NCBI GenBank assembly: GCA_036796335.1
Contig: DAIRDE010000008.1
Coordinates: 1,777 to 65,776, forward strand
Direction: 5' to 3'
DNA: 64,000 nt
From: Nonlabens sp.
Lineage (GTDB): Bacteria > Bacteroidota > Bacteroidia > Flavobacteriales > Flavobacteriaceae
The notes under the pieces are model-generated. The model was given only the letters and a program-made list of their open reading frames with translations, was not told the origin of the DNA and did no database searches. Of this stretch, positions 372 through 63,076 are shown piece after piece (position 1 is the stretch's first letter; every line of letters begins with the position of its first letter). The translations under genes were made by a program, and so were the position numbers.

Positions 372-1370
372 ATGATTTTAGTAACAGGAGGAACTGGTCT
401 TGTGGGTGGACATTTGCTGTATCGCTTTCGCGAAAGCGAACTCCCTATAACAGCCATTTACCGTAACAAAGCGCATCTAGCTAAAACGCGTGCGATATTT
501 GAATCCTATGCTGCAGGTGACGGGGCGCTGGTAGACCGTTTTAACTGGGTACAAGCAGATGTAACCGACCTGCCGTCGCTACAAGAAGTTGTGCAGGGAG
601 TAACCCATATTTACCATTGTGCAGCGCTTATAGAAGGTTCTTTTAAAGAACTGAAACTGGTAAACGTCCTAGGTACCGAAAATGTGGTGAATGTAGCGCT
701 GCATGCAGGCGTTAAAAAGTTGTGTTATGTAAGCAGCATTGCCGCACTAGGCGATCCTGTAAACGGCAAACCCACTACTGAAGATGATTTTTTTAACCTA
801 GATGCACGCAACAGCACCTATGCCATCACAAAATATGGTGCCGAAATGGAGGTATGGCGCGCAAGTCAAGAGGGCATGGACGTGGTTATTGTAAATCCAG
901 GTATTATTCTAGGCGAGGGGAACTGGAACAGCGGCTCTGGTAAATTGTTTTCTAAAACAGCCAGCGGGCAGCCTTTTTTTACGAGCGGCTCCAGCGGCTT
1001 TATAGACGTGCGCGATGTTGCTGAAATCATGCACAAACTTATGAATAGTGCGATTGCAAACGAGCGTTTTATTCTAGTCGCTGCAAATGAAACCTATAAA
1101 AAGGTCCTTACTAACATTGCTCAAGCACTTCACAAAAAACCGCCATATCTACACCTGCGCAGTGGTGTGTTATATGCAGTTTATGCATTACAACTCTTAG
1201 GCGCAATCGTCGGGATATCTAAAAGTCTTTCTCGTGCGATCATTAACTCGCTGGTGTCTCAAAGTTATTATAGTAGTAAGGCGGTTGCAGCTAGATTACC
1301 GCATACGTTTATCCCCTTAAACCAAACAATTAACCGTGTTGCGGCTAACTTTTTATCAAGCCGCAGTTAA
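372..1370 (+). CDS. NAD-dependent epimerase/dehydratase family (SDR) protein
   Basis: N-terminal Rossmann motif MILVTGGTGLVGGHL and an extended-SDR YxxxK (YAITKYGAE). The ORF opens at 339, but the internal Met at 372 sits directly before the glycine-rich motif. Confidence 0.85.
   Translation: MILVTGGTGLVGGHLLYRFRESELPITAIYRNKAHLAKTRAIFESYAAGDGALVDRFNWVQADVTDLPSLQEVVQGVTHIYHCAALIEGSFKELKLVNVLGTENVVNVALHAGVKKLCYVSSIAALGDPVNGKPTTEDDFFNLDARNSTYAITKYGAEMEVWRASQEGMDVVIVNPGIILGEGNWNSGSGKLFSKTASGQPFFTSGSSGFIDVRDVAEIMHKLMNSAIANERFILVAANETYKKVLTNIAQALHKKPPYLHLRSGVLYAVYALQLLGAIVGISKSLSRAIINSLVSQSYYSSKAVAARLPHTFIPLNQTINRVAANFLSSRS
423..438. repeat. palindrome CGCTTTCGCGAAAGCG, copy 1 (perfect, in the epimerase CDS, read as RFRESE)
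   Basis: Read directly from the sequence. The palindrome extends to 18 bp (TCGC..GCGA). Confidence 0.97.
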
Positions 1371-1381
1371 ACACCCATTTT

Positions 1382-1798
1382 TTACTTAACAATAGGCTTT
1401 AACTCTATAAGAGAGTCGGCTGTTACTGGTGTAACTTCATTTTGTTTGTTTTCTATTTCTATAAGCTCTTCTAGATTCTTTCTTTGGTTTGCCAAACGCT
1501 CGTTAGTACGTTTTAAGATTTCCTCATAATCCTCGGGACGATCTGCATAATAAGCAAAGTTTTTTTGAAAGGTAACGCTGTCTATTTTATGCTTTTTATA
1601 TACAAACTTATGGGGCAAGGTTTTGGTATTGAGAAATGCAGTTTGATTAGTAGCTAATGCCCCTTCTATCAAATAAATATCGGCCATGACGGCTGCCATT
1701 TTATCCTTATCTAGGAATCTATCTGGTTTTGGGGAGTAGCGCACCTGATTGCAAGAGGTGACTAGAATACCTAAAATAACGAGTGTTTTAAATTTCAT
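1382..1798 (-). CDS. small lipoprotein, DUF4296-like
   Basis: Lipoprotein signal MKFKTLVILGILVTSC. Its start overlaps the end of the upstream dihydroorotase gene by 4 nt. This position next to pyrC is, from memory, typical for DUF4296 in flavobacteria. Confidence 0.55.
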   Translation of the reverse strand: MKFKTLVILGILVTSCNQVRYSPKPDRFLDKDKMAAVMADIYLIEGALATNQTAFLNTKTLPHKFVYKKHKIDSVTFQKNFAYYADRPEDYEEILKRTNERLANQRKNLEELIEIENKQNEVTPVTADSLIELKPIVK

Positions 1799-7571: not shown

Positions 7572-8936
7572 ATGCGTCACATGCTAATTATAGGAGCTGG
7601 TAAATCTACCGGAGTTCTTGTAGATTACCTTATTAAAAAGGCACAAGAAGAAGATCTTTTTATCACCGTGGCCGATAAACAACTGCACCAGGCCGCCATA
7701 TTATGTGCAAAAAATGAACGCGCCAAGGCTATAGCACTAGACATCACAAATACTACCGAAAGACAAAACGCTATAAAAAGCGCCGATCTAATTGTCTCTA
7801 TGTTACCCGCTCATCTACACATAGAGGTCGCTATGGACTGTATTACTTTTAAAAAGTCCCTAGTAACCGCCAGTTATGTAAGCCACGCAATGCAAGAATT
7901 GCATGAGCAAGCCGTTGCAAATGGGCTGGTTTTTATGAACGAGATAGGCGTAGATCCAGGAATAGACCACATGAGCGCCATGGACATTATTGACCGACTG
8001 CGCGCTCAAGGAGCTAAAATTTTACTTTTTGAATCCTTTACCGGCGGGCTCGTGGCTCCCGACGATGACAATAACTTGTGGAATTACAAATTTACATGGA
8101 ACCCGCGCAATGTCGTATTAGCAGGACAAGGCGGCGCAGCCAAATTTATACAAGAAGGAACCTATAAACACATTCCTTACCACAGACTTTTTAGACGTAC
8201 CGAGTTTTTAGAAATAGAAGGTTACGGCCGTTTTGAAGTCTATGCAAATCGCAACAGCCTGCAATATAGAGATGCCTATAATCTTAATGACGTGCTCACA
8301 TTATACCGCGGGACGATGCGCCGTGTAGGTTTTTCTAAGGCGTGGAACATGTTTGTAACCCTAGGCATGACCGATGATACGTACACCTTAGAAGACTCTG
8401 AACACATGAGTTATCGAGACTTTATAAATAGCTTTTTGCCCTATTCTCCTACCGACAGTGTAGAACTAAAGACAAGGCACGAGCTTAAAATAGACCAAGA
8501 CGATATCATGTGGGATAAACTGGTAGAGTTAGACCTGTTTAACGCAACTAAAAAAGTAGGCCTTAAAAATGCCACACCCGCACAAATACTTCAAAAAATT
8601 CTCGAGGAAAGCTGGACCCTAAAACCAGGTGAAAAAGACATGATCGTCATGTACCACAAGATAGGTTTTGAACTTAACGGCGAGAAAAAACAAATAGACA
8701 GCACGATGGTGTGCCTGGGTGATGGACACAAACAAACAGCCATGGCAAAAACAGTTGGGTTACCTGTAGCCATCGCCGCACTTAAAATTTTAAACGGCGA
8801 GATACAGCGTCCAGGGGTTCAAATCCCAACGCAAGAGGCGATCTATAAGCCTATTTTAGAAGAACTTAGCCTGTATGGTGTTCGCTTTCGCGAAAGCGAA
8901 GTCCCCTACCTGGGCTACAACCACTTAAACCTTTAA
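7572..8936 (+). CDS. saccharopine dehydrogenase family protein
   Basis: Rossmann N-terminus MLIIGAGKSTG and IGVDPGIDHMSAM, the Lys9-like signature. The start may instead be 7581. Confidence 0.85.
   Translation: MRHMLIIGAGKSTGVLVDYLIKKAQEEDLFITVADKQLHQAAILCAKNERAKAIALDITNTTERQNAIKSADLIVSMLPAHLHIEVAMDCITFKKSLVTASYVSHAMQELHEQAVANGLVFMNEIGVDPGIDHMSAMDIIDRLRAQGAKILLFESFTGGLVAPDDDNNLWNYKFTWNPRNVVLAGQGGAAKFIQEGTYKHIPYHRLFRRTEFLEIEGYGRFEVYANRNSLQYRDAYNLNDVLTLYRGTMRRVGFSKAWNMFVTLGMTDDTYTLEDSEHMSYRDFINSFLPYSPTDSVELKTRHELKIDQDDIMWDKLVELDLFNATKKVGLKNATPAQILQKILEESWTLKPGEKDMIVMYHKIGFELNGEKKQIDSTMVCLGDGHKQTAMAKTVGLPVAIAALKILNGEIQRPGVQIPTQEAIYKPILEELSLYGVRFRESEVPYLGYNHLNL
8883..8898. repeat. palindrome copy 2 (perfect, in the saccharopine dehydrogenase CDS, read as RFRESE)
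   Basis: Read directly from the sequence. The palindrome extends to 20 bp (TTCGC..GCGAA). Confidence 0.97.
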
Positions 8937-14834: not shown

Positions 14835-17800
14835 TTAATTACCAAAAGTATAACGCAAGGTAAACCCACTGCGTATGGTGGTTTGCGGGAATGCTGTAGA
14901 AATGGCAAATTGTGAGAACGTGTGGTCATAATAAAATAACGCGGTAAACGCAGCGCTTAAAGCATACTCGCCTGTAAACTTAAGTCCATATATTGTTTGC
15001 CCTGCAGTAGCCTGGCTGTTATCTAAATCCAGATATCTTATAATGGTAACATTATCACGCACTGACCCATCTAAACGCAAGTTTAAGTCACTTTTAATAA
15101 TGGTACTTCTACCGCCTACATTTGTTTTAAATCGCAAATCCTTTATACGATATCCTAAACCCAGAATAAGCTCATTCCCATTAATTTCAGTTAATAAGTT
15201 ATTGTCAAAACTTAAAGAAACTACACGATCTCTTCTAATTTCGGCTGCTACCGAAAGTGAGTTTTTCATCTCAAAATCTAGTTTAATGAGCGGGCTAAAT
15301 TGCTCGGCGAGGTTAATGTTGAAGAATAAATTACTCGCTTTAAAATCACCGTTTTGGTTAAGAGCTACTGTGTTTTGCCTGTCGTACTCTAATCCAGGTG
15401 TACCAGATACAAAATCCAGGTTTGTTTGAAACTGGTTGATGGTGTAACTAGATCGATAACCGTGATTTAAAGAGAATCGATTAAAGCGCTTTTTAAACCA
15501 TTGAAGATTCATTAAACCTGTGTATTTAATGGTCCAGTTAGGTAACGGAATGTCCTTAAACGCACCAGATTTTTGGTCAGCAATGTCACGCCCCTCATAA
15601 GCTGCAAGAAAAGCAGGTAAAAGTACATTTTGGCTGTTACGACTGAAACCTTGCGGGAAACCATCGGCATCGCGGCTGTAGGTGTCAGACCCGTAAAATT
15701 CTCGTGCAAGACGCTCGGCAACTGCTAGCCTGTTTTCTCTAAAGGTGTCAAAAACGGGGGAATTATCAATCGTACTAGGTTTAAAGGCTGTTGCTATGGT
15801 TAATGTAGATATATTAAAATTTCCCGATGTATTAGGTGTAAGCTGTTGGTATGTTAAATCTATAGGATCTACACGGAAATTTTCAGAGAAATTCTCCTGA
15901 TAATTGCGATTAGCTATCACATCAATTTTTAAGTCCTTAAGTACATCGACATTAAAATTAACATCCAGCAATCGGGTCTCAACCTCGGTATATTGTTGGT
16001 TAAATTCCTGGAACAAGGTTAACCAACCGCGTCGTGCTGCTAGATCACGAATCTCGGCCTGTGAACCAAATGTAAAGCCTAGTGTTGGGGTGAGTGTCCC
16101 TATAAAACCGACATCGGGGGTGTAGCCTGGTAACGTGGTACCGTTTGTTTCTTGATAATTAATTTGAACACGTTTAACCGCAGTAACAATTCCCACAAGT
16201 GTGTTGTATGCTTGGTTTGCAAAATTCTTTTTAGGAATCTTAGCCTCCTCTCCTTTTTTATCGCCAGCGGCAGGTGGGGCGGCGGGTGCACCTCGTCTAG
16301 GAGTACTTGCTGCACGCGTTCTTGTACCTGCCGCTGGTACACCAAATTTCTTTTTCTTCAATCCTATGTAAGAGTATAACTTATCAAGATCTAAGGACCC
16401 GTTTAGGCGGTGTGTGTTTGCATTTTGAACAGTATTTCCTAAATCTGGTATGCCCTCTAGCTGCGAGAATTGTTGTGAACTGCGCTGCCAGTTAAAATCT
16501 GCAGAGTATGTGTAGTTCGCTTTCGCGAAAGCGAGAAACGGAAACTTATCAAAGGGTAACTGATACGTCGTTTGTAATTGCTGCGTGTGTGCATTAGGAA
16601 CCCCCTCGTCGATAAAGTTTGTCCATATCCCATAGCTCTCGTCTATACTGTCATCGTCGTTTATAAAGGAGCGTATAACGCGATCGTTGTTTGCAGAGAA
16701 ATTGACTTGTAGTGATTTTGTAATATCCCAATTAATGGCGTAGCGGTTGTTAAATGTAAAATTGCGATTTGTTAATGGGTCTATAGAAATGTTTTGGGCA
16801 TCAGGAATACCATCACCATTTAAGTCTACAGGATTTGTGTCTAACTGTAAGTCTCTAAATTGCTGGCGGTTAAATTGCCTAATCACGGTACTTGTTGCAG
16901 TAAAATTATTAGGTAAAAGATTTATATTAAAGTCTTTAGCAAAGTCAAAATATTTTGATTTACCTAAAAAACCTATGTTTTTAAATGGTTCTAAGGTAGA
17001 CTTAGGAAATGCATAGTTATAGGTCGCCGCCACATTTACCGACTGGTCTATGAATTCGGCAACCTCAAAATTGCGCTGATCGGTCTGGTTATAGGAACCA
17101 GAAAATGTAAAGTTTTCAATATTATAAGGCATGGGTTTAGCATCGCCGGTGCGGTCTTTACGCACGCCTATCAGGTTTACACTTTGCCTGCGGGTGTAAT
17201 CTTCACTTTGTTGTCTTATCGCCTCGCGTTCGGCATCACTTGTGGCGTTTGCTAGACGGGTATCTAGTTCTATGTCTTCAAATTGTGGGTCGAATTGTGG
17301 GGTCACTGTCGTTTCCCCGATGCTATAGGTAAATGGCAAGTTCACGCCCCATTTTTTTGGTAATAATTGCCCTAAACTCACACTGGTGGTGACATCGTAC
17401 TGGGTGACATCTTCTCGACTGCGCTCGTTAGGACCTTGTTCAATGGCCCCAAAACCTATAGTGCTTCTTCTTCCAGATGCACTTACGGTGGCAAAATCTG
17501 CAATGTTTGCATCCAGATTCATGACGGCAGCATATCCCCCCTGATTTTTAAGTCCCGAAAGTCGCAACTCGTTTACCCACACCTCGCCACAAATATCGTT
17601 TGTACTGGCGTTGCGCACGCCTATCATTAAGGTTCGTACATCGCCAAAATTAGGATTTCCCTTAATCCCAAAACGATGCAAGTTGGGTCTACCGGCTGCA
17701 GCGGGATTTAAATCTACTTCATTAAAAAAGTTGAGTTCGTTTACATTGAGTGCAGGATTGCCTAAAACCAAAGATTTGATTTGTTGTAAAAGCGCAAGAT

Positions 17801-20800: not shown

Positions 20801-22058
20801 ATCCCTCGTTAACGGTGGTTCCACCAAAACCAGCTTGCGCGGTTGCAATATCGCGTATCTGGTTGTTTAGAATGGTTTGGGTACCTGTATTAATCCCTAG
20901 CGGGTTAAAATCGTTATTTGCGTTATCAGGGAATGCGCCAGGTTGTGCATTTATAAATCCAGGTGGTACAGCATCTAGACCTATATTTGTCGGGTCGGCT
21001 TCTCCTATATCCTGTATCGCCACAAGATTACGCACATCTTGGGTACGATTTCCACGGTTTGTTATCCAGACCTCGGCCCTGGTGATTTGTATGTTTGTAT
21101 TGATAAAAGGATAGTTTTCTAATGCCCTGTCATAATTATCTCTAAAATAATGTGCGAGGAAGTAGTGCCTGTTTTCGTCATAATCTAGAGAGAAGAAGTC
21201 AAAATCGTTTATACTCGCCCCACCCGCTGCCTGCACCGTACGCGACTCAGACTGCTGCTCGCTAAAAACTGATGTGATACGGGTTTTACCAAATTGCAAA
21301 TCGGCCTTTATACCAAAGAGTGATTGCGCGCCCCGTATTAATTGTGAATTAAGTGGCATGGCGATGTTACCTACTTCTATACTTTGCAGGATGTCGTCCT
21401 CACTAGGTTTAAAATCTAATTTTAACTGGTTTTGAAAATTAAACGTGCTTTGCGTGTCATAATTTACATTAACATTTACCCGTGTCCCCACTTTACCTAG
21501 TAAACTTAGGTTGATGCGTTGATTAAAGTCAAAGGTTAGGTTTTGTCTATTACGCGGTGAAAAAATAGGATTATCACTTCTATTAAAAAGCACACCTAAA
21601 TCCACTTCGACCGACCCTTGCGGCACGATAGAAATTTCAGTACCCCCAAAAATGGACTCAAACAGGGCAGAATTTACATAGAAATTAGGGAGTAGGTTTT
21701 TTTGCTTGTCTTTATCGGCCTCGGTTTTTCCTTTTACTGCCCGATACTTTTCCTTAAAATAATCACGCATCTCTTCTTTTAACACGCGATCTAGATACTC
21801 CTGTCGTGTGAGTACAAATGGATAATCCACATTATATCCCGCAAATGTGCTAGAAAACACATAACGATCCATCACCGCGTCATAAATGTAGAGTGTTTTG
21901 ATGCTAGGCGGGTTGGGTAATACCAGTTTGCCAGTACGCCCACCCGTTTTAGTAGTGTCCTGTGGTGTTGTGGTGTCTTGCGCTTTCGCGAAAGCGAAAA
22001 CCATAAAACATAATAACACGGTTACATACTTGCGTAAACCTTTATAACTTACTATCAA
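14835..22058 (-). CDS. sprA: T9SS translocon / cell surface protein SprA
   Basis: 2407-aa secreted beta-rich giant protein whose size and composition fit SprA (Sov). The stop of ruvA lies 3 nt upstream. Confidence 0.9.
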   Translation of the reverse strand: MIVSYKGLRKYVTVLLCFMVFAFAKAQDTTTPQDTTKTGGRTGKLVLPNPPSIKTLYIYDAVMDRYVFSSTFAGYNVDYPFVLTRQEYLDRVLKEEMRDYFKEKYRAVKGKTEADKDKQKNLLPNFYVNSALFESIFGGTEISIVPQGSVEVDLGVLFNRSDNPIFSPRNRQNLTFDFNQRINLSLLGKVGTRVNVNVNYDTQSTFNFQNQLKLDFKPSEDDILQSIEVGNIAMPLNSQLIRGAQSLFGIKADLQFGKTRITSVFSEQQSESRTVQAAGGASINDFDFFSLDYDENRHYFLAHYFRDNYDRALENYPFINTNIQITRAEVWITNRGNRTQDVRNLVAIQDIGEADPTNIGLDAVPPGFINAQPGAFPDNANNDFNPLGINTGTQTILNNQIRDIATAQAGFGGTTVNEGFDYVTLESARKLTPQEYTLNTQLGYISLRQRLNNDEVLAVAFQYTVNGRVFQVGEFANDGVVATSVIENPNPAQPPVNNQSLVVKLLKSNLTNVSEPIWDLMMKNIYNLGGFQLSQEDFKLNIFYQFPPELNYITASAGTLTNPPVPLPPGVDQTTLIRVFNLDRLNRQGDPQTAGDGFFDFIPGLTIDTENGRVIFTSVEPFGSYLFNKLVNPPTSGSENYDNPATYNANQAQYVYRDMYRTTKAQALESADKNKYLIRGQYKATGQEGIPIGAFNVPRGSVTVNAGGRVLQEGIDYTVDYQAGRVIILDQALLNSNTPIQVSTENNSAFNQQVKRFTGINVEHQFSKDFILGGTFLNLNERPVTPKATYGFEPINNTIIGTNFLYNTQVPFLTRLANKLPNIDTDVESNLSVRGEFAYLLPGSPAGDNFQGRAAAFVDDFEGSQTSIDILNPFAWFLSSVPKAFENGGSDSNRLAYNYLRARLAWYSIDPIFYGNQRPAGLSDDDISDYRTRRVFIDEIFPNVDIQQGQQQIIPTLDLAYYPTERGPYNYNPLAAASNTLPNPRENWGGITRSFSSTDFEQTNVEYIQFWLMDPFLYEPTNNGGTISINLGSISEDILKDNRKQFENGLPRDGGTLLTIPTDYGKVPSNQSLIYAFDTEGQERVNQDIGLDGLSDAEEAALFPQFDPQDPAGDNYEYFLAANGDILNRYKRYNNTQGNSPTEVTQNNRGSTTLPDVEDINRDNTMNTIDSYYAYDIPIFPGMDVASSQYIFDTKNVQTTLPNGNTINTRWVQFRVPINDPNREVVGGIADLRAIRFMRLALTNFAEDTYLRFGSLELVRGDYRRYTASLQDTDPDPNDDGTTFEVEGVNIENNESRSPIPYRLPPGIEREELRTQNQNIRQNEQSLALRTCGLEPDDARAVFKNIRIDMRQYEQLEMFVHAESLLNQVPLLDDQMEVFLRIGLDFTENFYEIRLPLKPTAFGTTVREEIWPQSNDIRIDLALLQQIKSLVLGNPALNVNELNFFNEVDLNPAAAGRPNLHRFGIKGNPNFGDVRTLMIGVRNASTNDICGEVWVNELRLSGLKNQGGYAAVMNLDANIADFATVSASGRRSTIGFGAIEQGPNERSREDVTQYDVTTSVSLGQLLPKKWGVNLPFTYSIGETTVTPQFDPQFEDIELDTRLANATSDAEREAIRQQSEDYTRRQSVNLIGVRKDRTGDAKPMPYNIENFTFSGSYNQTDQRNFEVAEFIDQSVNVAATYNYAFPKSTLEPFKNIGFLGKSKYFDFAKDFNINLLPNNFTATSTVIRQFNRQQFRDLQLDTNPVDLNGDGIPDAQNISIDPLTNRNFTFNNRYAINWDITKSLQVNFSANNDRVIRSFINDDDSIDESYGIWTNFIDEGVPNAHTQQLQTTYQLPFDKFPFLAFAKANYTYSADFNWQRSSQQFSQLEGIPDLGNTVQNANTHRLNGSLDLDKLYSYIGLKKKKFGVPAAGTRTRAASTPRRGAPAAPPAAGDKKGEEAKIPKKNFANQAYNTLVGIVTAVKRVQINYQETNGTTLPGYTPDVGFIGTLTPTLGFTFGSQAEIRDLAARRGWLTLFQEFNQQYTEVETRLLDVNFNVDVLKDLKIDVIANRNYQENFSENFRVDPIDLTYQQLTPNTSGNFNISTLTIATAFKPSTIDNSPVFDTFRENRLAVAERLAREFYGSDTYSRDADGFPQGFSRNSQNVLLPAFLAAYEGRDIADQKSGAFKDIPLPNWTIKYTGLMNLQWFKKRFNRFSLNHGYRSSYTINQFQTNLDFVSGTPGLEYDRQNTVALNQNGDFKASNLFFNINLAEQFSPLIKLDFEMKNSLSVAAEIRRDRVVSLSFDNNLLTEINGNELILGLGYRIKDLRFKTNVGGRSTIIKSDLNLRLDGSVRDNVTIIRYLDLDNSQATAGQTIYGLKFTGEYALSAAFTALFYYDHTFSQFAISTAFPQTTIRSGFTLRYTFGN
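16518..16533. repeat. palindrome copy 4 (perfect, in the sprA CDS, read as AFAKA)
   Basis: Read directly from the sequence. The peptide context is FPFLAFAKANYT. Confidence 0.97.
21981..21996. repeat. palindrome copy 5 (perfect, encodes the end of the sprA signal peptide, AFAKAQ)
   Basis: Read directly from the sequence. The peptide context is CFMVFAFAKAQDTT. Confidence 0.97.
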
Positions 22059-25216: not shown

Positions 25217-25232
25217 CGCTTTCGCGAAAGCG
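25217..25232. repeat. palindrome copy 6 (perfect, intergenic, upstream of maeB)
   Basis: Read directly from the sequence. It is a 20-bp palindrome and shares 25 identical nt with copy 8. Confidence 0.97.
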
Positions 25233-25292
25233 AACTACCTATAATCATCATGCATTTAACGGTCAGTTTGCAGGAACAGGCTTTACGGTCAC

Positions 25293-25330
25293 AAAAAAAA
25301 ACACCGCTTAGCATATACAAACGGTGTTTT
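25293..25330 (-). terminator. possible terminator downstream of the T9SS-CTD remnant
   Basis: ACACCG/CGGTGT stem with a large 15-nt loop, followed on the minus strand by a T8 run. Confidence 0.4.
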
Positions 25331-25349
25331 AGATAAGGTTCAAAGAATT

Positions 25350-25697
25350 TTAATTAATGGGTATTTGATGCACCTCTAACTGGTTGCTGTCGTGCATGAC
25401 ATGCATAATGTACGTGCCTGGTGATAGCATGGAAACGTCTATAGAACTTCCTAACTGATGCGAGGGCTTATTTAAAACCATAGTTCCTGTAAAGTTATAG
25501 AGTTTAACAGATACATACGTTGGGCAATTTGTACTGCCACCTAAATCAAAGATACCATCACTACAACCCAGGGTGTAAAAAGTCCATGTGGGATTTTGCA
25601 CCTTATCGATGGCAATAACCGTATTTGCGGGAACTGGTGATATAATAAAGTTAGAGGAGACAATGTTGCCAGCTGCTGGTGCACCGCAGTTTTGCAA
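25350..25697 (-). pseudogene. orphan C-terminal remnant of a T9SS-secreted protein
   Basis: The last ~55 aa, VKLYNFTGTMVLNKPSHQLGSSIDVSMLSPGTYIMHVMHDSNQLEVHQIPIN, look like a type A T9SS sorting domain. There is no signal peptide or cargo domain, and the upstream frame is broken. Confidence 0.5.
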
Positions 25698-25788
25698 ACA
25701 ACCCGATACAGGTATGCTAAAATGTTTTGTGAAATGCTCTATTACTTAAAAATAATGCTCAAGAGCAAATTGCTGGGCAGCATAAACT

Positions 25789-26073
25789 TCAATGTACTGC
25801 TACTCGATTGGTTGGTAGATGTTGCCACTGCCATGGTGCGTTTGGTTTTATGATGTTGCCGAAAACATTTAGATCCAAGTAATTGGTATCTCTTAACACA
25901 CCATCATAAGCAGTTATATCAGTAAATTCCATGGCATAATCCAGAAGATGTCCTGACTGCACTTTTGATTTGTCTACATGTTGAAAGATGTTATTGATTT
26001 CTGTTTTCCAGTCGGTGTCAACTTCTAATGGAGCAAAGATTAAACGGTGCGTGTAACTTTCAATAGCGACCAA
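25789..26073 (-). other. unassignable 94-aa ORF, probable gene fragment
   Basis: No signal peptide, no recognisable motif, and no good start context. It lies in the same AT-rich decay islet. Confidence 0.2.
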
Positions 26074-26194
26074 AGAAGCAACGCCCCTTATTTTTCAATC
26101 GTAACGTTAGAAACTAAATCGCTGTCGAAGTTTCGGGATTGGTTTCAACTCCCAAACCTCGCTTAAAAAAGATACATAAAGTTGTGCAACGATA

Positions 26195-26507
26195 TTAATT
26201 GTGAGTCAGAATCTTTAATAATTTTTTTGGATTTTGCCGATTATCCCAAAATGCTGTAATTAAAATTTCTTGCTCAGATACCGTATAAAGAATGCTATAA
26301 TTTCCAAGCGATGCAACACGAGTATGATTAAAGTCAGCTTTTTTTATAGATGAATGGTGTTTCAGCTATCTGTTAAGTTCGTTGCGCCACAATTTTTATT
26401 AATTTCTTTGAGTAAGTTGTGGATTTATTTCGCTTGACCCAATATTCCAATATTCCTACATACTGTATATCCGCTGTACGTGTCCATCTTACATTCCGTT
26501 TAGCCAT
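26195..26507 (-). pseudogene. RelE/ParE-family toxin, inactivated (nonsense plus frameshift)
   Basis: Hand translation gives MAKRNVRWTRTADIQYVGILEYWVKRNKSTTYSKKLIKIVAQRT, a TAA at 26373..26375, then QIAETPFIYKK. A +1 shift in an A7 run (26339..26345) leads to ADFNHTRVASLGNYSILYTVSEQEILITAFWDNRQNPKKLLKIL. The start overlaps the antitoxin end. Confidence 0.7.
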
Positions 26508-26731: not shown

Positions 26732-26791
26732 TTATGATTTATTTTATCGTAAATATCTAAAAAAACAGTCACTTTTCCTAATGTAGCGCAA

Positions 26792-26998: not shown

Positions 26999-27256
26999 GA
27001 TAATAATTTTTATGATGATACATCAATTATTGCAACGTACGGGATAAGAAGTGGTTAGGACATCTCAACCGTTTTGAATTGGGTTGCACGTATGAGAGCA
27101 ATTACAACAATGCACACTTAAAGCATTTTTTTATTCCCACTGTGCAAACCGCACCTTTGTCTGGATTGCTTTGGCGGCGCAGGACAAGGTTACCCATCAC
27201 AAAACAATAGTAACAGTTACCATCTTTATTATGAATAGATTATCTGGTTGTTTATT

Positions 27257-41476: not shown

Positions 41477-41492
41477 CGCTTTCGCGAAAGCG
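41477..41492. repeat. palindrome copy 10 (perfect, intergenic, in the actA / SPOR-gene divergent spacer)
   Basis: Read directly from the sequence. It lies 27 nt upstream of the SPOR gene ATG. Confidence 0.97.
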
Positions 41493-47724: not shown

Positions 47725-47733
47725 TTTAAAAAG

Positions 47734-48047: not shown

Positions 48048-51000
48048 ATGAACATTGCATACGACCGATTAAACAAAATAATAGGATGGTTAAGTTTTAG
48101 CATCTCTTTGTGTGTGTATTGGCTTACTGTTGAGCCTACCGTAAGTTTTTGGGACGCAGGCGAGTACATCGCCACCTCGTCTGGATTACAAGTAGGTCAC
48201 CCACCTGGGGCACCACTTTATCAAATGTTAGGTGCATTTTTCTCCATGTTTGCGTTTAGTCCTGATAAAATAGCCTACATGGTAAACATGATGTCTGTTT
48301 TTTCTAGTGCATTCACCATACTGTTTATGTATTGGTCTATCACACTGCTACTTAAAAGGCATATTTTAAAAGACAAAGGAGATGATACCGTAATCCTAGG
48401 AGCAGGATTTATAGGGGCAATGGCATTTACATTCTCTGACACTTTTTGGTTCAACGCGGTAGAAGCCGAGGTTTATGCACTCGCAACATTGCTCATGGCA
48501 GTCATGTTTTACCTAGGTTTATTGTGGGAACGGGACATGCTGCAACCTCGCGGTAATCGCTGGTTAATATTATTATCACTAATTATTGGACTTTCTTTTG
48601 GCGTGCACTTTATCGGTATACTTACCATCCCGGCAGTGGGCATGCTTTGGTATTTTAAACATTATAAAAAAATCACGATTCTCAATTTCATTGTTGCTAA
48701 CGTGGCAGTGGTAGCGGTGTTACTATTTGTTTTCAAATTATTATTACCATACACACTCAGTATTTTTGGCTATTTAGAAATCTTCTTTGTGAACGACATT
48801 GGTTTACCCTTTAACTCGGGAACCATCATTGCACTATTGCTTGTTGTGGGCGCCTTTGTAGGTCTTATTTCGCTTTCGCGAAAGCGTAACAATCCACTAC
48901 TCAACAACATCGTGTTATGCGTCATGTTTGTTTTAATAGGCTTTTCCTCGTGGACCATGCTGCCTATACGAGCAAATGCTGGCACACCTATTAACGAAAA
49001 TAAACCCGAAGACGCGCGTTCATTACTAGCATATTACAACCGTGAACAGTACCCTAGCGCACCCCTATTTTATGGAGAATCGTTTACAGACCAATACTCG
49101 GGATTAAACCCAGACGACCCATTTACCGATGAGAAGCCTAAATATGAAAAAGATTATAAGCTGGGAAAATATGTTATCGTTAATAAGTTTGAAAACGCGT
49201 TACAAAACTCAAATCCAGAACATATTGGGGTTTTACCGCGCATGTCTGACACCTCTCGTGCTACCGAATATGTAAAGTTTATGGGCGGTCTTAATTATGA
49301 GATCATGCCACAGTTTAGGGACAATCAGGAGTTGTTAAGCCTACTTGATGATAACCAGCGGCAGCTAGAGCGCGGTCGTATAGACGAAAGTGAATATATA
49401 GAAACACTAACATCTTTACAAAGCATTCCTGACCAAGAAGGTGGACGCATAGAGGTGCTTAAAATTCAGAAACCTACATTTAGCCAAAACATGGCATTCT
49501 TTGCCCAGTATCAGGTAAGTTATATGTACTTGCGATACTTTATGTGGAATTTTGTAGGCCGTCAAAACGATGAGCAAGGTATGTGGGATCGTTTTAATGG
49601 GAACTGGTTGAGTGGTATCCCATCTATAGACTCGTGGCACATAGGCACACAAGATAATTTAAGCCCAGACATGTTAAACAACAAGGCGCGAAATGTTTAC
49701 TTTTTCTTGCCTCTTATTCTAGGTATTATCGGTGCTGTTTTTCACGCAAAACGCGATTTGAAGTCATTTTATGTAACGTTGGTGTTGTTCTTATTCTCTG
49801 GACTTGCTATAATCGTGTATTTAAACCAAAGCATGTTTCAGGTGCGGGAGCGAGATTATGCGTATGTAGGGTCTTTTCTGGTCTTTGCCATGTGGATAGG
49901 CATGGGTGTGTATTCGATGTATGAAGGAGCAAAATCCTATATAAATGGACCCATAGCAAAATATGCAGTTATATTGAGTTGCTTTATTGCTGTACCGCTA
50001 TTAATGGGATTTCAAAACTGGGACGACCATGACCGGTCTGGCAAGTATACTGCCCTAGCAAGTGCTAGAAAGTATCTGGACAGCTGTTTGCCTAATGCTT
50101 TAATATTTACCATAGGCGATAATGACACTTTCCCGCTGTGGTACCTGCAAGAAGTAGAAGGTTATCGCACCGATGTGCGTGTGGTTTGTACAAGCTTACT
50201 AGCTACTGACTGGTATATGGACGATATGAAAAAGAAAGCGTGGCTTAGCGACCCTGTACCATCGACATTACCACATGAAAAATACAGATACGGTACAAGA
50301 GATGCATTGTGGTATGCCGACAAGGATCGCCTGCGCCAGCGTATAGGTGACCCTAATCTTGTTTTCCCTGACACGATGAGTATTAAACAGTGGATGGACT
50401 GGGTTGCAAGTGATAACGAGGTGACACTAGAAGAGATGCGCAGCGGTCACATGGAAAACACCTTCCCTACAAAATATGTAACCATACCCGTTAATAAAGA
50501 AAATGTATTAAAAAATGGTGTGGTACTTGCAAGGGATGCCGATAAAATTGTAGACGAAATAACGATAAAAATAAATTCTAACCTCGTTTACAAAAACCGC
50601 ATGCTTATGCTGGACATTATTCTAGCAAACGACTGGAAACGCCCTATTTACTTTTCTGGTGGCGCTTTTGGCGATGATGACTACATCTGGATGAAAGACT
50701 ATTTGCAACTAGACGGTTGTGCTTACCGACTTTTACCGATACAATATAAAAGCTCTAACCCTAGAGATCCGTTTGAAATGGGGCGTGTAGATCCAGATTA
50801 TGCCTATAAAACAATTATGAAATGGGACTGGGGTAATAGTGGAGACCCTGATGTGTACCATGACGTGGAAACCAGACGCAATAGCGTGGGCTACCGTTCT
50901 AATATCGCACGTGCCGCCGAGGCACTAACCATGGCTGGGCAATTTAAAAAAGCCGAGCAATTACTAGACCTGGGAATGGAAAAAATGCCTTTAGATATTT

Positions 51001-52382: not shown

Positions 52383-53603
52383 TTAACCTCTTTTAAGCGT
52401 GATTACAGTAATCTCGGGCCATATACCAGCCCGACCCTTATAACCTAAAAAGCCAAAACCCCGGTTTACGTTTAAAAAACGGTCAAATTCTTTATAAATG
52501 CCTGCCCATTTTTTATAAACAAACCACGCAGGACTTAATTTTATAAAACCAGGTATCTCAATGCCAAACTGCATCCCGTGCGTATGCCCACTTAACGTCA
52601 GGTGAAAGTTGCTGGGACTTTCCTTAACCTGCAAATCCCAGTGTGTAGGGTCATGGCTTAAAAGCACCTTAAACAAATTTGAATCCAGTCCCTGTGCGGC
52701 TTTACTTAAATTACCATATTTAGGAAAACGACCGCCACCCCAGTTTTGCACCCCTACGATAGCAAGCTGGTCCTCACCGCGTTTTAAAATTTCGTGCTCG
52801 TCCATTAACAGCCGCCAACCCATATTTTTTTGAATACTAGCCAGTTCTTCTAAATTACCCCTTTTAGCAGCATCACTAGGCCACTGTACATAATCACCAT
52901 AATCATGATTCCCTAATACCGAGTAAACACCATCTTGAGCACGCAAACTCCCAAATATTTCTTCCCAGCCATACATTTCACTTGCCTGATTATTTACTAA
53001 ATCCCCTGTAAATAATATGAGATCGCCTTGCTGTTTATTTGCCAGATCTATCGCATATCGCACCTCTTCTTTATCATTAAAACTGCCCACATGAATGTCA
53101 CTTAAATGCGTCATGCGGTAGCCATCAAATGCGGCTGGTAAATCCTTAAAACGCAACTCATATTTTCTAACTTGGTAATTATATTTTCCCCGCCATGCCC
53201 CATAAAATATAGCTCCAAATGGCAGCGCGGCAACTCCCAGTCCTATCGTTGCAATAAACTGCCGCCTGCTGGGTAAAAAAGGTTGTTGGGCATCTCGCTT
53301 TCGCGAAAGCGAACTCCACAAACCCTCGCCCAGTCTATACACATCTTCTATAAGCATGAAGAGTATGAAAAACGATTTTGCCGTGAGAAATGCAATAAAG
53401 ATTGTCGTTGCAAAATCCCGAGAAGTGGACAAGGCATTTCTATCTGGATTTAAATAAAACTGTAAAATAAGGTTCAGGATAACACCTATGGACAATGCGA
53501 GATACAACCATTTCCACCAGTGACCACGTGAAATGCTGCGTATAAGTTGAAACGCATAGATTTCGAGTAAAATAAAAATGGCTATCGCAATAAATAATCT
53601 CAT
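52383..53603 (-). CDS. membrane-anchored metallophosphoesterase
   Basis: Motifs LSDIHVG, GDLVN, GNHDY and GHTH, with four N-terminal TM helices. Confidence 0.85.
   Translation of the reverse strand: MRLFIAIAIFILLEIYAFQLIRSISRGHWWKWLYLALSIGVILNLILQFYLNPDRNALSTSRDFATTIFIAFLTAKSFFILFMLIEDVYRLGEGLWSSLSRKRDAQQPFLPSRRQFIATIGLGVAALPFGAIFYGAWRGKYNYQVRKYELRFKDLPAAFDGYRMTHLSDIHVGSFNDKEEVRYAIDLANKQQGDLILFTGDLVNNQASEMYGWEEIFGSLRAQDGVYSVLGNHDYGDYVQWPSDAAKRGNLEELASIQKNMGWRLLMDEHEILKRGEDQLAIVGVQNWGGGRFPKYGNLSKAAQGLDSNLFKVLLSHDPTHWDLQVKESPSNFHLTLSGHTHGMQFGIEIPGFIKLSPAWFVYKKWAGIYKEFDRFLNVNRGFGFLGYKGRAGIWPEITVITLKRG
53296..53311. repeat. palindrome copy 12 (perfect, in the metallophosphoesterase CDS, read as LSRKR)
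   Basis: Read directly from the sequence. The peptide context is WSSLSRKRDA. Confidence 0.97.
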
Positions 53604-55561: not shown

Positions 55562-57025
55562 ATGCTCAAACAGTCTTTAAGTTTTAAGCTTTCGCAAAAG
55601 CTTTCCCCGCAACAAATACAGTTAATGAAACTGATACAGTTGCCTACACAAGAGTTTGAGCAACGGGTAAAAGCCGAACTCGAGGAGAATCCTGCACTAG
55701 ATAGCGGTAGTGAAAAGAATGAGGACGATTATGACGAGTTTTCTAATGAAAACGACAGCGATTATGACACTGATAGTGAATCGATAGAAACAGATATTAA
55801 TGTAGATGATTACCTGAGTGACGACGACATACCCGAGTACCGCACACAGGCAAATAATTACAGTGCAGATGACGAGGACCGCAACATGCCCTATGCAGCA
55901 GGTAAGTCATTTACCCAAACGCTTAACGAGCAATTAGATACCCTAAGACTTACAGATGAAGAGGCAGCGATTGCCGCCTTTCTTGTAGGCAGCATTGACG
56001 AGAGCGGTTACATAAGGCGCTCCTTAGAAGATATTACCGACGACCTGGCATTTACCTCCAATATATTTACCGAGGTTGCTGTGGTAGAAAAAGTACTGAA
56101 AATAGTGCAAACGATAGACCCTGCGGGCGTGGGTGCCCGTGACTTGCAGGAGTGTTTGTTAATTCAGCTTTCGCGAAAGCGTAAAACCGAATCTACCGAA
56201 CTTGCTATAAAATTGCTGCGTGACTCCTTTGATGCATTCAGTAAGAAGCATTACGATAAAATTGTAGCAAAGTATGATCTAAACGAGGATCAACTGCGCG
56301 CCGCGATAGACGAAATTGCCCATTTAAACCCCAAACCAGGTGGTTCAATTTCTGGTGGGAACTTGCGTGCCGTGGAACAAGTAATTCCCGACTTTATTAT
56401 ACGTATAAAAGATGGGGAATTAGAACTTACCCTAAATGGTCGTAATGCGCCTGAACTGCATGTTTCAAAAGATTATTCTAACATGCTTAAAGGCTATAAA
56501 GAGGCTAAAGAAAAAAGCAAATCGCAAAAAGATGCTGTCATGTTTATTAAACAAAAACTGGATGGTGCAAAATGGTTTATAGAGGCCATAAAACAGCGCC
56601 AGGAGACACTTTTTGTAACCATGTCGGCCATTATGAACTACCAGAAAGACTTTTTTTTAAGTGGTGACGAGCGCAACCTGCGCCCCATGATTTTAAAAGA
56701 TATTGCCGATGAGATAGGCATGGACGTGTCTACCGTTTCCCGCGTGGCAAATTCTAAATATGTAGACACACCATACGGCACAAAACTTATTAAAGTATTT
56801 TTTTCAGAATCAATGACAAATGCCGATGGCGAGGAAGTTTCTACCAGAGAAATTAAAAAAATACTAGAAACTGTTATAGGCGAGGAAAAAAAACGAAGGC
56901 CACTTACCGACCAGCGACTTGCCGAAATTCTTAAAGAAAAGGGCTATCCTATTGCACGTAGAACTGTTGCAAAATACAGGGAACAGCTGGACATACCCGT
57001 TGCCCGTTTAAGAAAACAAATCTAA
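55562..57025 (+). CDS. rpoN: RNA polymerase sigma-54 factor
   Basis: 487 aa with region I LKQSLSFKLSQKLSPQQIQLMKL, an acidic region II, the HTH STVSRV and the RpoN box ARRTVAKYR. Confidence 0.95.
   Translation: MLKQSLSFKLSQKLSPQQIQLMKLIQLPTQEFEQRVKAELEENPALDSGSEKNEDDYDEFSNENDSDYDTDSESIETDINVDDYLSDDDIPEYRTQANNYSADDEDRNMPYAAGKSFTQTLNEQLDTLRLTDEEAAIAAFLVGSIDESGYIRRSLEDITDDLAFTSNIFTEVAVVEKVLKIVQTIDPAGVGARDLQECLLIQLSRKRKTESTELAIKLLRDSFDAFSKKHYDKIVAKYDLNEDQLRAAIDEIAHLNPKPGGSISGGNLRAVEQVIPDFIIRIKDGELELTLNGRNAPELHVSKDYSNMLKGYKEAKEKSKSQKDAVMFIKQKLDGAKWFIEAIKQRQETLFVTMSAIMNYQKDFFLSGDERNLRPMILKDIADEIGMDVSTVSRVANSKYVDTPYGTKLIKVFFSESMTNADGEEVSTREIKKILETVIGEEKKRRPLTDQRLAEILKEKGYPIARRTVAKYREQLDIPVARLRKQI
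55587..55602. repeat. diverged relative AGCTTTCGCAAAAGCT (13/16, in rpoN codons for KLSQKL)
   Basis: Read directly from the sequence. It is itself a near-palindrome with the same central variant as copy 7. Confidence 0.6.
56166..56181. repeat. palindrome copy 13 (15/16, AGCTTTCGCGAAAGCG, in the rpoN CDS, read as QLSRKR)
   Basis: Read directly from the sequence. The only mismatch is the middle base of a CAG Gln codon. Confidence 0.95.
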
Positions 57026-60879: not shown

Positions 60880-61162
60880 TTGAAAATTATTGTTTATTTG
60901 TTTTTTTCAGTTAAGGGGTAAATATATAATTCTTTCGGCGAAAATAGAACAATTCATATAAAGCTATCATTAAATTTTACTAGAAATTTATTTTTTAATA
61001 GAAACTTGTCTAAAAACACCTTTCTTATCCATGATAACAACCTTGTTTAAAGATTATTGTAAAGCACTGCTTGTTTTAAAGGCCATTATCGCTACAGGCC
61101 AGATTAAAAACATAAGTAAGTGTGCACAGTCTTTTCATGTTCATTTTCTAGGGAAATCTGTT

Positions 61163-63076
61163 TTACTCTTGAAAAATAGGTGCCTGTTTTATTCCTGGCA
61201 AATTATTGCCTACTTGCACTGCACTACTTCCTAAAATAGTTACTTGCCCGACAGTAAAGTCTGCTGCAGTGGCTTCAAAAATATTGTCCACATACTTTTG
61301 TGGGTTGCAGTCTATATAAGGAAACCATGTGCTGTGAATTTGAATCATGATGCGGTGGCCTTTTTTAAAGGTGTGTAAAATATCTTGTAATGGAAAGTTT
61401 ACTGTTTCTTGAGCACCTTCTTCAAATGGTTCTGGTTTTGAAAAATCATTTCTAAAACGTCCTCTAAACGTCTCGGCACGCACAAGCTGCTGGTAGCCTG
61501 CAAGTGTCACATGTTTTGGAGTTTTTTCATGATTTTCTTCATCATCTGGATAGACATCGATTAGTTTTACGATAAAGTCGGCATCTGTAATCCCGTTAAG
61601 AATAACTTCTAGATTTGCCTGTATTTCTCCTGCTAGTGTTACATCGTCGGCGAGCACAGGGGTTTTAAAAGTGAGTACATCGGGTCTGCGCGAGGCGTGT
61701 CGCTGGTCGTCGGTCATGTATGCTCTAGGAGTAAAGGTTACTGGTGTAATCTCACTTCTAAAAGGAACCGGTTTTGCTGGGTCACTTACATAAGAAAAGG
61801 ATACCGAATTATCACTTACCTTGTTAATAAGCAATTCCTCGTTCTTACCAAAGCCTAAAGTCACCTGATTATCTACCGGTGGCCACACATTAAAGGTTTT
61901 CCATTCTTTTTTCCCGGTGTCAAACATGTAAGCCTCTGGCATAGGCTTCATAGCTGTACCCCTAAGATGATGCTCAAAAAAAGGCGTCTCTATATTGCGT
62001 TGATAAAAGGTAGAAATGCTATCGCCAAAGTAAATATGATTCACCATTTGACTGCCCGGCTCTCGTGACCAGTTGCCGTGGCTCCATGGACCCATGACAA
62101 TGGTGTTGCTCTTTATTTTTGGATTGTTGCGCTCTAGTTTTTTGTAAATATTTAACGGACCGTAGAGATCCTCGGCATCAAACCAGCCGCCCACCGTCAT
62201 CACTGCATGCTTTACATTTGTAAGATGCGGTATGATGGAACGTTTTTGCCAAAACTCGTCATAATTAGGGTGGGTTGCAACATCTTTCCAAAAGAAATTA
62301 TCTGGGAAAATATTTTTAGTAACGTTGCTAAGCGGTCCTATGTTCATATTAAAGTCATAGGTGTCTTTCATGTTGCCAGCCTTGCGCATAGCATCCCATT
62401 TATCGTCATACCAGCTTTTGGTAGTAGGCTCGGTCTGGTGGCCGAAAACTGGGTAAGCCATTAAATAACTTTGCAATGTCGCCCCCATGTGGTGAAAATC
62501 GTCAAAATAAAAATCGCCGATAGGTGCTTGTGGTGAAGATGCGACCAGTGCAGGATGTGCCTCGGGCAATGCAGCTGCTGTATAAAATCCAGGGTAAGAA
62601 ATTCCCCATTGTCCTACTTTCCCGTTGTTGTTAGGTATGTTTTTAAGAAGCCAGGCAATCGTGTCATAGGTGTCAGAGCTCTCGTCGATGTCCTTCTTGT
62701 TTTTAGGATTGTTCCCAGCGATATGTGGACGCATGTTGTCAAAATCACCTTCACTCATCCAGCGACCGCGCACATCTTGGTACACAAAAATGTACCCCTT
62801 TTCCATAAGCATGGGATTAGGTCCTAATCGCGCAGGGAATTTATCATCGCCATAAGGTGCCACACTATAACAAGTGCGTTGCATTAAAATAGGTGATTTT
62901 TCGGTGGCGTTTTTTGGTGTGTAGACGGTGGTGTAAAGTTTTACGCCGTCCCGCATGGCTACCTGATAGGATTTTTTATTATAATGGTCTTTAACATTAA
63001 ATGTGCTTTTTGGGGATTGCGCTTTCGCGAAAGCGAAACTACCCACAACCAATAGTGCTAATAGAAATTTTTTCAT
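61163..63076 (-). CDS. CocE/NonD family (S15, X-Pro dipeptidyl-peptidase-like) hydrolase
   Basis: 637 aa with a signal peptide, a nucleophile-elbow-like GISYPG, and a C-terminal jelly-roll region of typical length. Confidence 0.8.
   Translation of the reverse strand: MKKFLLALLVVGSFAFAKAQSPKSTFNVKDHYNKKSYQVAMRDGVKLYTTVYTPKNATEKSPILMQRTCYSVAPYGDDKFPARLGPNPMLMEKGYIFVYQDVRGRWMSEGDFDNMRPHIAGNNPKNKKDIDESSDTYDTIAWLLKNIPNNNGKVGQWGISYPGFYTAAALPEAHPALVASSPQAPIGDFYFDDFHHMGATLQSYLMAYPVFGHQTEPTTKSWYDDKWDAMRKAGNMKDTYDFNMNIGPLSNVTKNIFPDNFFWKDVATHPNYDEFWQKRSIIPHLTNVKHAVMTVGGWFDAEDLYGPLNIYKKLERNNPKIKSNTIVMGPWSHGNWSREPGSQMVNHIYFGDSISTFYQRNIETPFFEHHLRGTAMKPMPEAYMFDTGKKEWKTFNVWPPVDNQVTLGFGKNEELLINKVSDNSVSFSYVSDPAKPVPFRSEITPVTFTPRAYMTDDQRHASRRPDVLTFKTPVLADDVTLAGEIQANLEVILNGITDADFIVKLIDVYPDDEENHEKTPKHVTLAGYQQLVRAETFRGRFRNDFSKPEPFEEGAQETVNFPLQDILHTFKKGHRIMIQIHSTWFPYIDCNPQKYVDNIFEATAADFTVGQVTILGSSAVQVGNNLPGIKQAPIFQE
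63020..63035. repeat. palindrome copy 14 (perfect, encodes the end of the S15 peptidase signal peptide, AFAKAQ)
   Basis: Read directly from the sequence. The peptide context is GSFAFAKAQSPK. Confidence 0.97.

Follow-up and report, generated by a model that had tools for sequence, protein, structure and literature searches.

Hyper-iterated words that are selected at the level of DNA are known from very few lineages, the examples being HIP1 (highly iterated palindrome 1) of cyanobacteria, the DNA uptake sequences (DUS) of Neisseria and uptake signal sequences (USS) of Pasteurellaceae, Chi, and the FtsK-orienting polar sequences (KOPS). Known uptake sequences are non-palindromic 9-12-mers that occur about once per kb. 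Perfect palindromes of 14-16 bp are found as parS and as the Noc-binding sites (NBS), and these also occur within genes. For HIP1, whose function has been debated for 30 years, it has been described that the word spreads by substitution, is conserved at orthologous sites and is spaced non-randomly (PMC5861425, PMC4390886, bioRxiv 10.1101/2024.09.10.611283), and lineage dialects have been described for DUS (PMC7371117). The word treated here is a 16-nt perfect palindrome, CGCTTTCGCGAAAGCG, that is iterated in a 64-kb stretch of DNA from Nonlabens sp. (contig DAIRDE010000008.1; the whole stretch analysed is called the window). It is specific to one clade of Flavobacteriaceae, made up of Nonlabens, Dokdonia and related metagenome-assembled genomes (MAGs). 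No prior description of the 16-mer, or of such a word in Flavobacteriaceae, was found in the literature. An earlier note on this DNA had stated that no described function was known to it for such a motif in Bacteroidota.

Copies in the window and taxonomic range

Twelve exact copies of the 16-mer are present in the window, a density of 1 per 5.3 kb, and exact copies are absent from all 100 of 100 dinucleotide-preserving shuffles of it. By hand arithmetic, the expectation by chance is 0.2^10 x 0.3^6 x 64000 = 4.8e-6 copies per window, and the GC content of the window is 0.38-0.42. There are also two 15/16 copies and one 13/16 relative (Table 1), the latter being probably a decayed or incipient copy. 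Nothing further is found in the window at three or fewer mismatches, where 0.15 would be expected, and the window holds no second iterated k-mer. These are the same exact and near-exact copies that the earlier note had claimed, all of them recovered at the positions given in Table 1, and its figures of about 5e-6 copies by chance and about 40% GC were reproduced. The note had also claimed that the copies are not limited to intergenic DNA; nine of the 12 exact copies are located within long open reading frames (ORFs), and all three frames are in use. An assembly or library artefact, against which the note had advised a check, is ruled out: independent data, namely isolate genomes, MAGs, Joint Genome Institute (JGI) metagenomes and Logan assemblies of the Sequence Read Archive (SRA), have the same word in frame at orthologous positions.

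The exact word was sought in 185,579 species genomes (596 Gb) divided into 8-kb tiles, and at least 117 tiles are among the matches listed. They comprise at least 45 tiles from Dokdonia, at least 33 from Nonlabens (including BBFL7) and at least 26 from unnamed Flavobacteriaceae MAGs, and many of the clade tiles listed hold two or three copies. The genomes behind at least 13 listed tiles are unrelated or more distant, several being high in GC, and each of these tiles has one exact copy. These single copies fit chance in 596 Gb, where about 140 would be expected with equal base frequencies (hand arithmetic). Counted in related Flavobacteriaceae, as the earlier note had proposed, the word is multi-copy in Nonlabens, Dokdonia and the related MAGs. 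A zero-truncated Poisson applied to the listed 8-kb tiles gives about one copy per 9 kb in Dokdonia and about one per 12 kb in Nonlabens, and the overall density in the clade is roughly one copy per 5-10 kb. The tiles among the matches listed are scattered along replicons of 2.4-3.4 Mb, and the number of copies per genome is estimated at several hundred, distributed over whole chromosomes.

Loci were also picked by protein and not by motif, as 27 kb around sprA in six clade genomes and one outgroup genome. The clade genomes have 4-6 exact copies per 27 kb, which occupy the same set of five or six orthologous sites that is found in the window. The exception is locus L120, with one exact and three one-mismatch copies. 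L120 is the closest relative of the window and its copies are mostly outer-base variants. The SprA proteins of the window and of BBFL7 are 78% identical, and by SprA identity the organism of the window falls inside or beside Nonlabens. The syntenic sprA region of Constantimarinum has no copy, even at two or fewer mismatches, and no alternative iterated word was found in the 27 kb of the outgroup loci. A second syntenic region has 1-6 exact copies per 23 kb in the clade (three in BBFL7, six in N. marinus and one in N. ponticola) and none, even at two or fewer mismatches, in the outgroup Salinimicrobium. In a tile from an uncultured Aquimarina sp. (L069), a signal peptide (..VSAFAKAQQ..) contains an exact copy, and 0.9 kb from it there is a copy with one mismatch (156 and 1089); from this tile the word may occur at low density outside the clade of Nonlabens and Dokdonia.

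Origin, constraint and anatomy of the word

At the signal peptide of SprA, ..FAFAKAQ.. is found in all of the approximately 40 homologues with at least 68% identity, except for two that are N-terminally truncated and one that has AFAKG. At the internal site of the same protein, FPFLAFAKA[NST]YTY is found in about 36 of 40 clade homologues, the exceptions being AFAKT, AFANA, AFAEA and DFART. Approximately 80 SprA homologues with 61% identity or less, from Constantimarinum, Aequorivita, Ulvibacter and others, have FPFLKFIRATYSY (KFIRA) at equal length. In the TMEM260-like protein, LSRKR is present in 32 of 44 clade homologues and in none of 76 outgroup homologues, which have YTR[RK]K, again at equal length. 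The changes from KFIRA to AFAKA and from YTR[RK]K to LSRKR at unchanged length argue that the word was born by substitution. At the level of these alignments it is established that point substitutions in the ancestor of the clade of Nonlabens and Dokdonia turned existing sequence into the word.

The conservation of the word was compared with that of its surroundings. Among seven genomes, codon identity at identical residues of sprA is 0.40-0.54, i.e. the synonymous sites are saturated, and one codon is kept across all seven genomes in just 5.7% of the invariant degenerate columns. The codons GCT TTC GCG AAA GCG are identical in seven of seven genomes at the signal-peptide site and in five of seven at the internal site, and the motif codons at the signal peptide form the longest run of identical codons in the 2400-codon sprA. 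The spacer between the P450 and malic enzyme genes is otherwise unalignable in a seven-genome alignment, and the 16 motif columns are its sole invariant block, apart from three isolated single columns. Every AFAKA, RFRES and LSRKR in 294,000 residues from clade genes is encoded by the word or by a one-mismatch derivative of it, and synonymous codons are never used. Because the motif codons are identical at saturated sites and the spacer block is invariant, the sequence itself is under constraint at the DNA level. Judged by these alignments, the word has been kept letter-perfect as DNA while its surroundings diverged to saturation, and the same sites are occupied across genera with saturated synonymous sites. 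The tail of the saccharopine dehydrogenase gene in locus L123 (about 23853-23900) encodes EFTEKE and is without the motif, and a spacer copy is located about 1 kb away at 22879; this locus is an example of site turnover beside a gene insertion. An extra abhydrolase gene lies between the dehydrogenase tail and the spacer copy in L123.

Frame and location were compiled for 153 exact sites in 811 kb. Sixty-one sites encode AFAKA, 20 encode RFRES and 15 encode LSRKR, so that 63% are in genes, and 57 (37%) are in spacers, compared with 12% of random positions, a threefold enrichment. AFAKA, the mildest of the peptides, is favoured among the three frames. Whether a spacer is convergent, tandem or divergent, copies are found in it in proportion to the length available. 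Of the stop-codon distances of spacer copies, 26 of 61 are 2-17 nt, and no copy is less than 20 nt from a start codon. The spacing of the window copies is more even than expected by chance (P = 0.004 for a coefficient of variation of 0.45; P = 0.001 for a minimum gap of 2.5 kb). The copies are placed where they are least harmful, and local density seems to be the conserved quantity.

The strictly kept core of the word is the inner 14-mer, GCTTTCGCGAAAGC, and its usual extension is T-N-core-N-A. Among 41 one-mismatch variants, 30 affect the outermost base pair alone and 11 affect one of the 14 inner positions, and these 11 inner-position variants are far fewer than the 153 exact copies. Most often (18 of 41), the single mismatch is a change of C1 to T at a CpG, and near-matches with 2-3 mismatches are rare beside exact copies. 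The N. ponticola locus (CP034549; L171, 287477-310845) has eight of the 14-mers and one exact 16-mer, and the outer base there is free, with A at six, C at six and T at four of 16 half-sites. At position -1, Dokdonia has A (TA-core-TA) and the window has T (TT-core-AA). The variation of the outer bases is a matter of lineage dialects. Position -2 is T in 88% of spacer copies. In the approximately 20 nt 5' of the core on each strand, C makes up 5-10% compared with 19%, hence the 3' side is depleted in G, and the 5' flank is T-rich out to position -12. Both the C-depletion and the T-richness are equal in coding and spacer copies (-24..-1 and +1..+24; for example, positions 399-422 and 439-462 of the window).

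Two suggestions of the earlier note concern this anatomy. It had claimed that the copies share no long flanks, which is correct, but the composition of the flanks is biased, with T at -2 and a depletion of C. It had also pointed to an octamer on each strand that is known to form an extraordinarily stable mini-hairpin, and this idea found no support: as single-stranded DNA the 16-mer folds with only -4.3 kcal/mol (z = -0.9 compared with shuffles), and its arms are without covariation. A longer structured hairpin was considered and rejected as well, since over the 153 sites no covariation of the arms is seen beyond the nearest 4 nt, the remainder being a lineage effect. Symmetrisation of the outer bases in N. 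ponticola, which would be a sign of hairpin-templated correction, is 3/8 compared with 0.34 expected and is not above chance.

The genes of the window that bear the word are ordinary housekeeping types as judged by Pfam, including SprA with its two copies. The remaining window is a core chromosomal region with IF-2, NusA, RimP, asparaginyl-tRNA synthetase (AsnRS), RuvA, RuvB, cytochrome oxidase, alternative complex III and ExbBD. Pfam searches of nearly all window genes gave no transposase, methyltransferase, nuclease, recombinase or unusual DNA-binding protein.

Table 1. Copies and relatives of the word in the window. Gene coordinates and strands are in parentheses; a slash marks the signal-peptide cleavage site.
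Feature	Position	Gene or spacer	Peptide encoded	Remarks
Exact copy	423..438	NAD-dependent epimerase gene (339-1370, +)	RFRES	R-F-R-E-S directly after GxGxxG motif
Exact copy	8883..8898	Saccharopine dehydrogenase gene (7572-8936, +), final 18 codons	RFRES	Orthologous copies in L121, L124, L118; none in L123
Exact copy	11382..11397	Gene of a 724-aa protein, function unknown (9759-11933, -)	AFAKA	Orthologous copies in L120, L121, L123, L124, L118
Exact copy	16518..16533	sprA (14835-22058, -), residue ~1842	AFAKA	
Exact copy	21981..21996	sprA, signal peptide	AFAKA	..FAFAKA/Q..
Exact copy	25217..25232	Spacer, 85 nt upstream of malic enzyme gene start		
15/16 copy, CGCTTTCGCAAAAGCG	27257..27272	26 nt downstream of P450 gene stop (27299-28645, -)		G10 to A
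Exact copy	29717..29732	Spacer, ruvB (start 29673) / cytochrome oxidase subunit I gene (end 29884)		
Exact copy	38711..38726	Fe-S/molybdopterin oxidoreductase gene (36905-40030, -)	AFAKA	Orthologous copies in BBFL7, N. marinus, N. ponticola
Exact copy	41477..41492	Divergent spacer, multihaem cytochrome gene / SPOR-domain gene		Kept in BBFL7, N. marinus; TGC..GCA in N. ponticola
Exact copy	48871..48886	TMEM260-like glycosyltransferase gene (48048-51422, +)	LSRKR	
Exact copy	53296..53311	Metallophosphoesterase gene (52383-53603, -)	LSRKR	
13/16 relative, AGCTTTCGCAAAAGCT	55587..55602	rpoN, N-terminus		
15/16 copy, AGCTTTCGCGAAAGCG	56166..56181	rpoN (55562-57025, +)	LSRKR	Outer C1 to A; 14-mer core intact
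Exact copy	63020..63035	X-Pro dipeptidyl peptidase gene (61163-63076, -), signal peptide	AFAKA	..SFAFAKA/QS..

The window also contains two tandem paralogues with a TonB-C domain (12051-12788 and 13186-13923, both -), which are both 245 aa long and 79% identical. Both have a proline run that derives from a repeated 12-mer, CACCACCGCCAC (12560, 12569, 13692 and 13701), and two TonB-like genes are found at this place in most relatives as well.

Several copies adjoin lineage-specific inserts or variable genes. Between the copies at 25217 and 27257 there is about 2 kb of lineage-specific DNA (25233..27256), which contains a fragment of a type IX secretion system (T9SS) C-terminal sorting domain (25350-25697, -), several small ORFs without a Pfam match and a canonical hairpin-plus-T terminator (25298-25330, -). 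The same P450-malic enzyme spacer is without an insert in loci L065, L122, L124 and L121 and has just one copy there, and in L118 it has a 476-bp insert flanked by two copies. Loci L118, L123 and L124 have an ahpC gene between the cytochrome oxidase subunit I gene and ruvB, and a motif copy flanks it on either the one or the other side; the gene is absent from the window and from L122, where a single copy is left. The copies at this slot are those at 29717 in the window, L118:3274, L123:4112, L124:4412 and L122:4468, and the ahpC polymorphism looks like loss or gain through recombination at the copies. In N. marinus a major facilitator superfamily (MFS) gene is flanked by two copies, and N. 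ponticola has a different gene there. A tRNA-Gln gene (anticodon TTG; 47733-47804, -) is found in a variable slot of the window that extends from rimP/usp to the TMEM260-like gene; the corresponding slot in BBFL7, N. marinus and N. ponticola has differing genes and a motif copy.

Phages differ in whether they carry the word. The lytic Nonlabens phages P12024S and P12024L (L167 and L168; 35.7 kb each) have no copy, even at three mismatches, where about 3-7 each would be expected at host density. Since these phages are without the word, a general mutational bias that acts on any DNA in these cells is unlikely. There are also phage-like contigs in IMG/VR with several copies. One 37-kb contig (IMGVR_UViG_3300040781_000495; L146:2050-6097, L163, L166) has six, including copies in the terminase large-subunit and portal genes. 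Elements that are presumably resident in the chromosome can acquire the word.

Proposed role in DNA exchange and competing explanations

Starting from the demonstrated over-representation, range, constraint, anatomy and placement of the word, we infer a function for it. The explanation preferred here, to which a probability of about 0.4 is given, is that the 16-mer is a clade-specific genome word that is read as duplex by a dimeric protein and serves DNA exchange or recombination. It is proposed that a two-fold symmetric, dimeric, sequence-specific protein would read the word as duplex DNA. The word would aid DNA exchange or recombination between relatives, as has been proposed for Neisseria DUS, Pasteurellaceae USS and cyanobacterial HIP1, and it could act as a tag that favours uptake or one that favours the survival or recombination of incoming kin DNA. 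The local density of the word would be maintained, and each site would be preserved by that advantage, either through selection or through molecular drive. Lost sites would be replaced nearby, and the weakly read outer bases would drift into lineage dialects. The word is found where the peptide (AFAKA, RFRES or LSRKR) or the spacer permits it. As a by-product, the identical copies of 16-20 bp may serve as junctions for gene gain and loss. Riemerella columbina, which belongs to the Flavobacteriales, is naturally competent and favours its own DNA (PMC7965970). It has been reported that HIP1 raises transformation efficiency, and it has been proposed as an uptake or Chi-like signal (bioRxiv 10.1101/2024.09.10.611283; 10.64898/2026.06.24.733823). 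A more specific proposal is tentative and rather doubtful, namely that the word is the first sequence-specific DNA-exchange signal in Bacteroidota, a palindrome read by a dimeric receptor that has genus-level dialects and doubles as a gene-swap junction. If true, HIP1-type words would be a general bacterial strategy and not a cyanobacterial oddity.

Several points weigh against a role in DNA exchange. No partner protein, competence system or methyltransferase has been identified, the window genes (Pfam on nearly all of them) being all housekeeping. To our knowledge, natural competence is not known for Nonlabens or Dokdonia. Compared with the known uptake sequences, the word is longer, palindromic and 5-10 times sparser. 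A host-like word density, as on some bona fide phage contigs, departs from what is classically seen for DUS, and the C-depleted flanks are not accounted for by any model tested. A copy is present in five of eight variable slots compared with one of 16 stable slots, but no significance is claimed for this association because spacer length confounds it. In addition, a perfect 14-16-bp palindrome suits a chromosome-organising dimer with helix-turn-helix (HTH) domains equally well.

An HTH dimer of that kind would bind every few kb and structure or position the nucleoid. The copies would then be an array of sites for a protein that organises or segregates the chromosome, comparable with ParB-parS, Noc-NBS, SlmA with its SlmA-binding sites (SBS) and MatP-matS, and far denser. 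The length of the palindrome and the intragenic sites are shared with parS and NBS, and the even spacing of the copies and the conservation of sites with local turnover are consistent with such an array. The biased flanks of about 20 bp on each side resemble a wide footprint. The periodicity of HIP1 has been interpreted likewise (PMC5861425), and the host-level density of the word on temperate phage contigs would mean that no gap without sites arises once they have integrated. However, the known systems have about 5-70 sites that are confined to the ori, ter or non-ter domains, whereas hundreds of sites over the whole chromosome are estimated here, and no ParB/Noc-like gene is linked to the word. 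A binding-site array is judged unlikely, although it ranks next after a role in DNA exchange.

It is also conceivable that methylation and biased mismatch repair have the word as their target or generate it as a by-product. An orphan methyltransferase would act at TCGCGA/CGCG or at the whole word, and a very-short-patch-like repair would convert near-matches and restore mutants, so that the word would build up with no function of its own. This is the classical idea for HIP1, and two orphan methyltransferases are known to recognise HIP1 (PMC4390886). Four CpGs and a centre of the NruI type are present in the word, and C1 to T at a CpG being the commonest change among the one-mismatch copies points in the same direction. 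However, we know of no precedent for a repair that reads 14-16 bp, the two lytic Nonlabens phages have neither a copy nor a near-copy, near-matches with 2-3 mismatches are rare relative to exact copies, and the outer-base variants of N. ponticola are no more symmetric than chance. The even spacing of the copies together with their local compensation argues for a density-dependent benefit over blind conversion. An explanation by methylation and repair is considered improbable.

The remaining alternatives, like an artefact, are effectively excluded. A miniature mobile element, whether a repetitive extragenic palindromic (REP) sequence or REP doublet forming a hairpin (REPIN), a miniature inverted-repeat transposable element (MITE) or another transposase-driven palindrome, would explain a palindrome with many identical copies, some pairs of which flank lineage-specific DNA, but orthologues with and without the word are equal in length, so that there was no insertion, 63% of the copies lie within genes and in frame, target duplications and long shared flanks are lacking, there is no transposase or REP-associated tyrosine transposase (RAYT) but only ordinary genes in the window and between close pairs, and sites are shared across genera. 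The earlier note had set aside REP sequences, bacterial interspersed mosaic elements (BIMEs) and MITEs, citing the lack of a nearby transposase and of target duplications, and it was right to do so, as the copies bring no length change, or any other indel, and Pfam on nearly all window genes gave no transposase. Selection on the peptide, with AFAKA at signal-peptide cleavage sites as in the two window copies that encode ..FAFAKA/Q.., is contradicted by the use of three frames and spacers, by the complete avoidance of synonymous codons and by motif codons that are unchanged where synonymous sites are saturated. An RNA hairpin acting as a terminator or stabiliser, which would suit the many spacer copies shortly after stop codons, is contradicted by the lack of a U tract, by a terminator-like score in one of four spacer copies scanned, by the weak fold and by arms without covariation. 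Rfam searches, done with gathering thresholds on the whole window and with permissive E-values on three spacer copies, gave just a tRNA and a chance match to a small RNA.

The hosts of the word are culturable and ecologically important marine Flavobacteriaceae. The length of the word (14-16 bp, or 20 with flanks) makes its detection essentially noise-free. Because there are a noise-free word, genomes inside and outside the group, dialects and one eroded lineage, it should be possible to find the reader protein and to test the function directly. In practical terms, a possible use of the word is to label kin DNA for genetic tools in these poorly tractable bacteria, and it provides a taxon-specific signature by which sequences can be binned and foreign DNA recognised. 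Five-residue peptides (AFAKA, RFRES and LSRKR) in hundreds of proteins, including signal-peptide cleavage regions, are dictated by a requirement at the DNA level.

Comparison with known systems

The findings place the word in the small class of genome words that are selected as DNA, and the systems that resemble it do so in different respects. REP sequences and BIMEs (REPINs) are also short palindromes with hundreds of copies per genome. However, REPs are extragenic, imperfect insertions that are spread by a transposase, whereas the word is mostly intragenic, perfect and substitution-born, with no RAYT seen. MITEs differ in that the word is 16-20 bp long, has no target duplication and is found in orthologues of equal length. 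Both parS and NBS are, like the word, perfect palindromes of 14-16 bp that suit a dimeric HTH protein, are tolerated in coding sequence and are conserved in position. They differ from it in number and distribution, with a handful to about 70 sites per genome that are regional, compared with an estimated several hundred that are chromosome-wide. The half-site of the word, CGCTTTCG, is not the same as the parS half-site, TGTTTCAC.

The likeness to DUS and USS is one of habits. They are clade-specific, are found in all frames where the peptide tolerates them, favour spacers close to the ends of genes and are kept at orthologous positions, and they have lineage dialects, even spacing and weaker extended flanks in common with the word; they are absent from lytic phages, as the word is from the two lytic Nonlabens phages. 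DUS and USS are asymmetric, however, often form inverted pairs that act as terminators, and have an uptake bias that was shown experimentally, whereas the word consists of one perfect palindrome. For Nonlabens and Dokdonia neither competence nor an uptake bias is known, and the density of the word on some phage contigs is like that of the host.

The earlier note had named HIP1 (GCGATCGC) as the nearest precedent, and this is apt, as the word was likewise spread by substitution and kept at orthologous sites. Both are perfect palindromes that are vastly over-represented and are found in genes and in spacers. Both were born by substitution and not transposed, are kept at orthologous sites beyond the neutral expectation and are spaced non-randomly. 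Both have been implicated at recombination or excision junctions, and the function of both is debated. The differences are that the sequence of the word is unrelated to HIP1 and has no GATC, that it is twice as long (14-16 bp, or 20 with flanks) and that it is 5-10 times sparser, at about one per 5-10 kb compared with up to more than one per gene. HIP1 proper has cognate orphan methyltransferases (GATC / CGATCG), whereas none is known for the word. HIP1 is phylum-wide, whereas the word belongs to another phylum and to one clade at the sub-family level. Among the known systems HIP1 is closest to the word in form and DUS/USS are closest in habits; the word is a HIP/DUS-like word in a new phylum, with genus-level dialects and a cleanly defined in-group and out-group.

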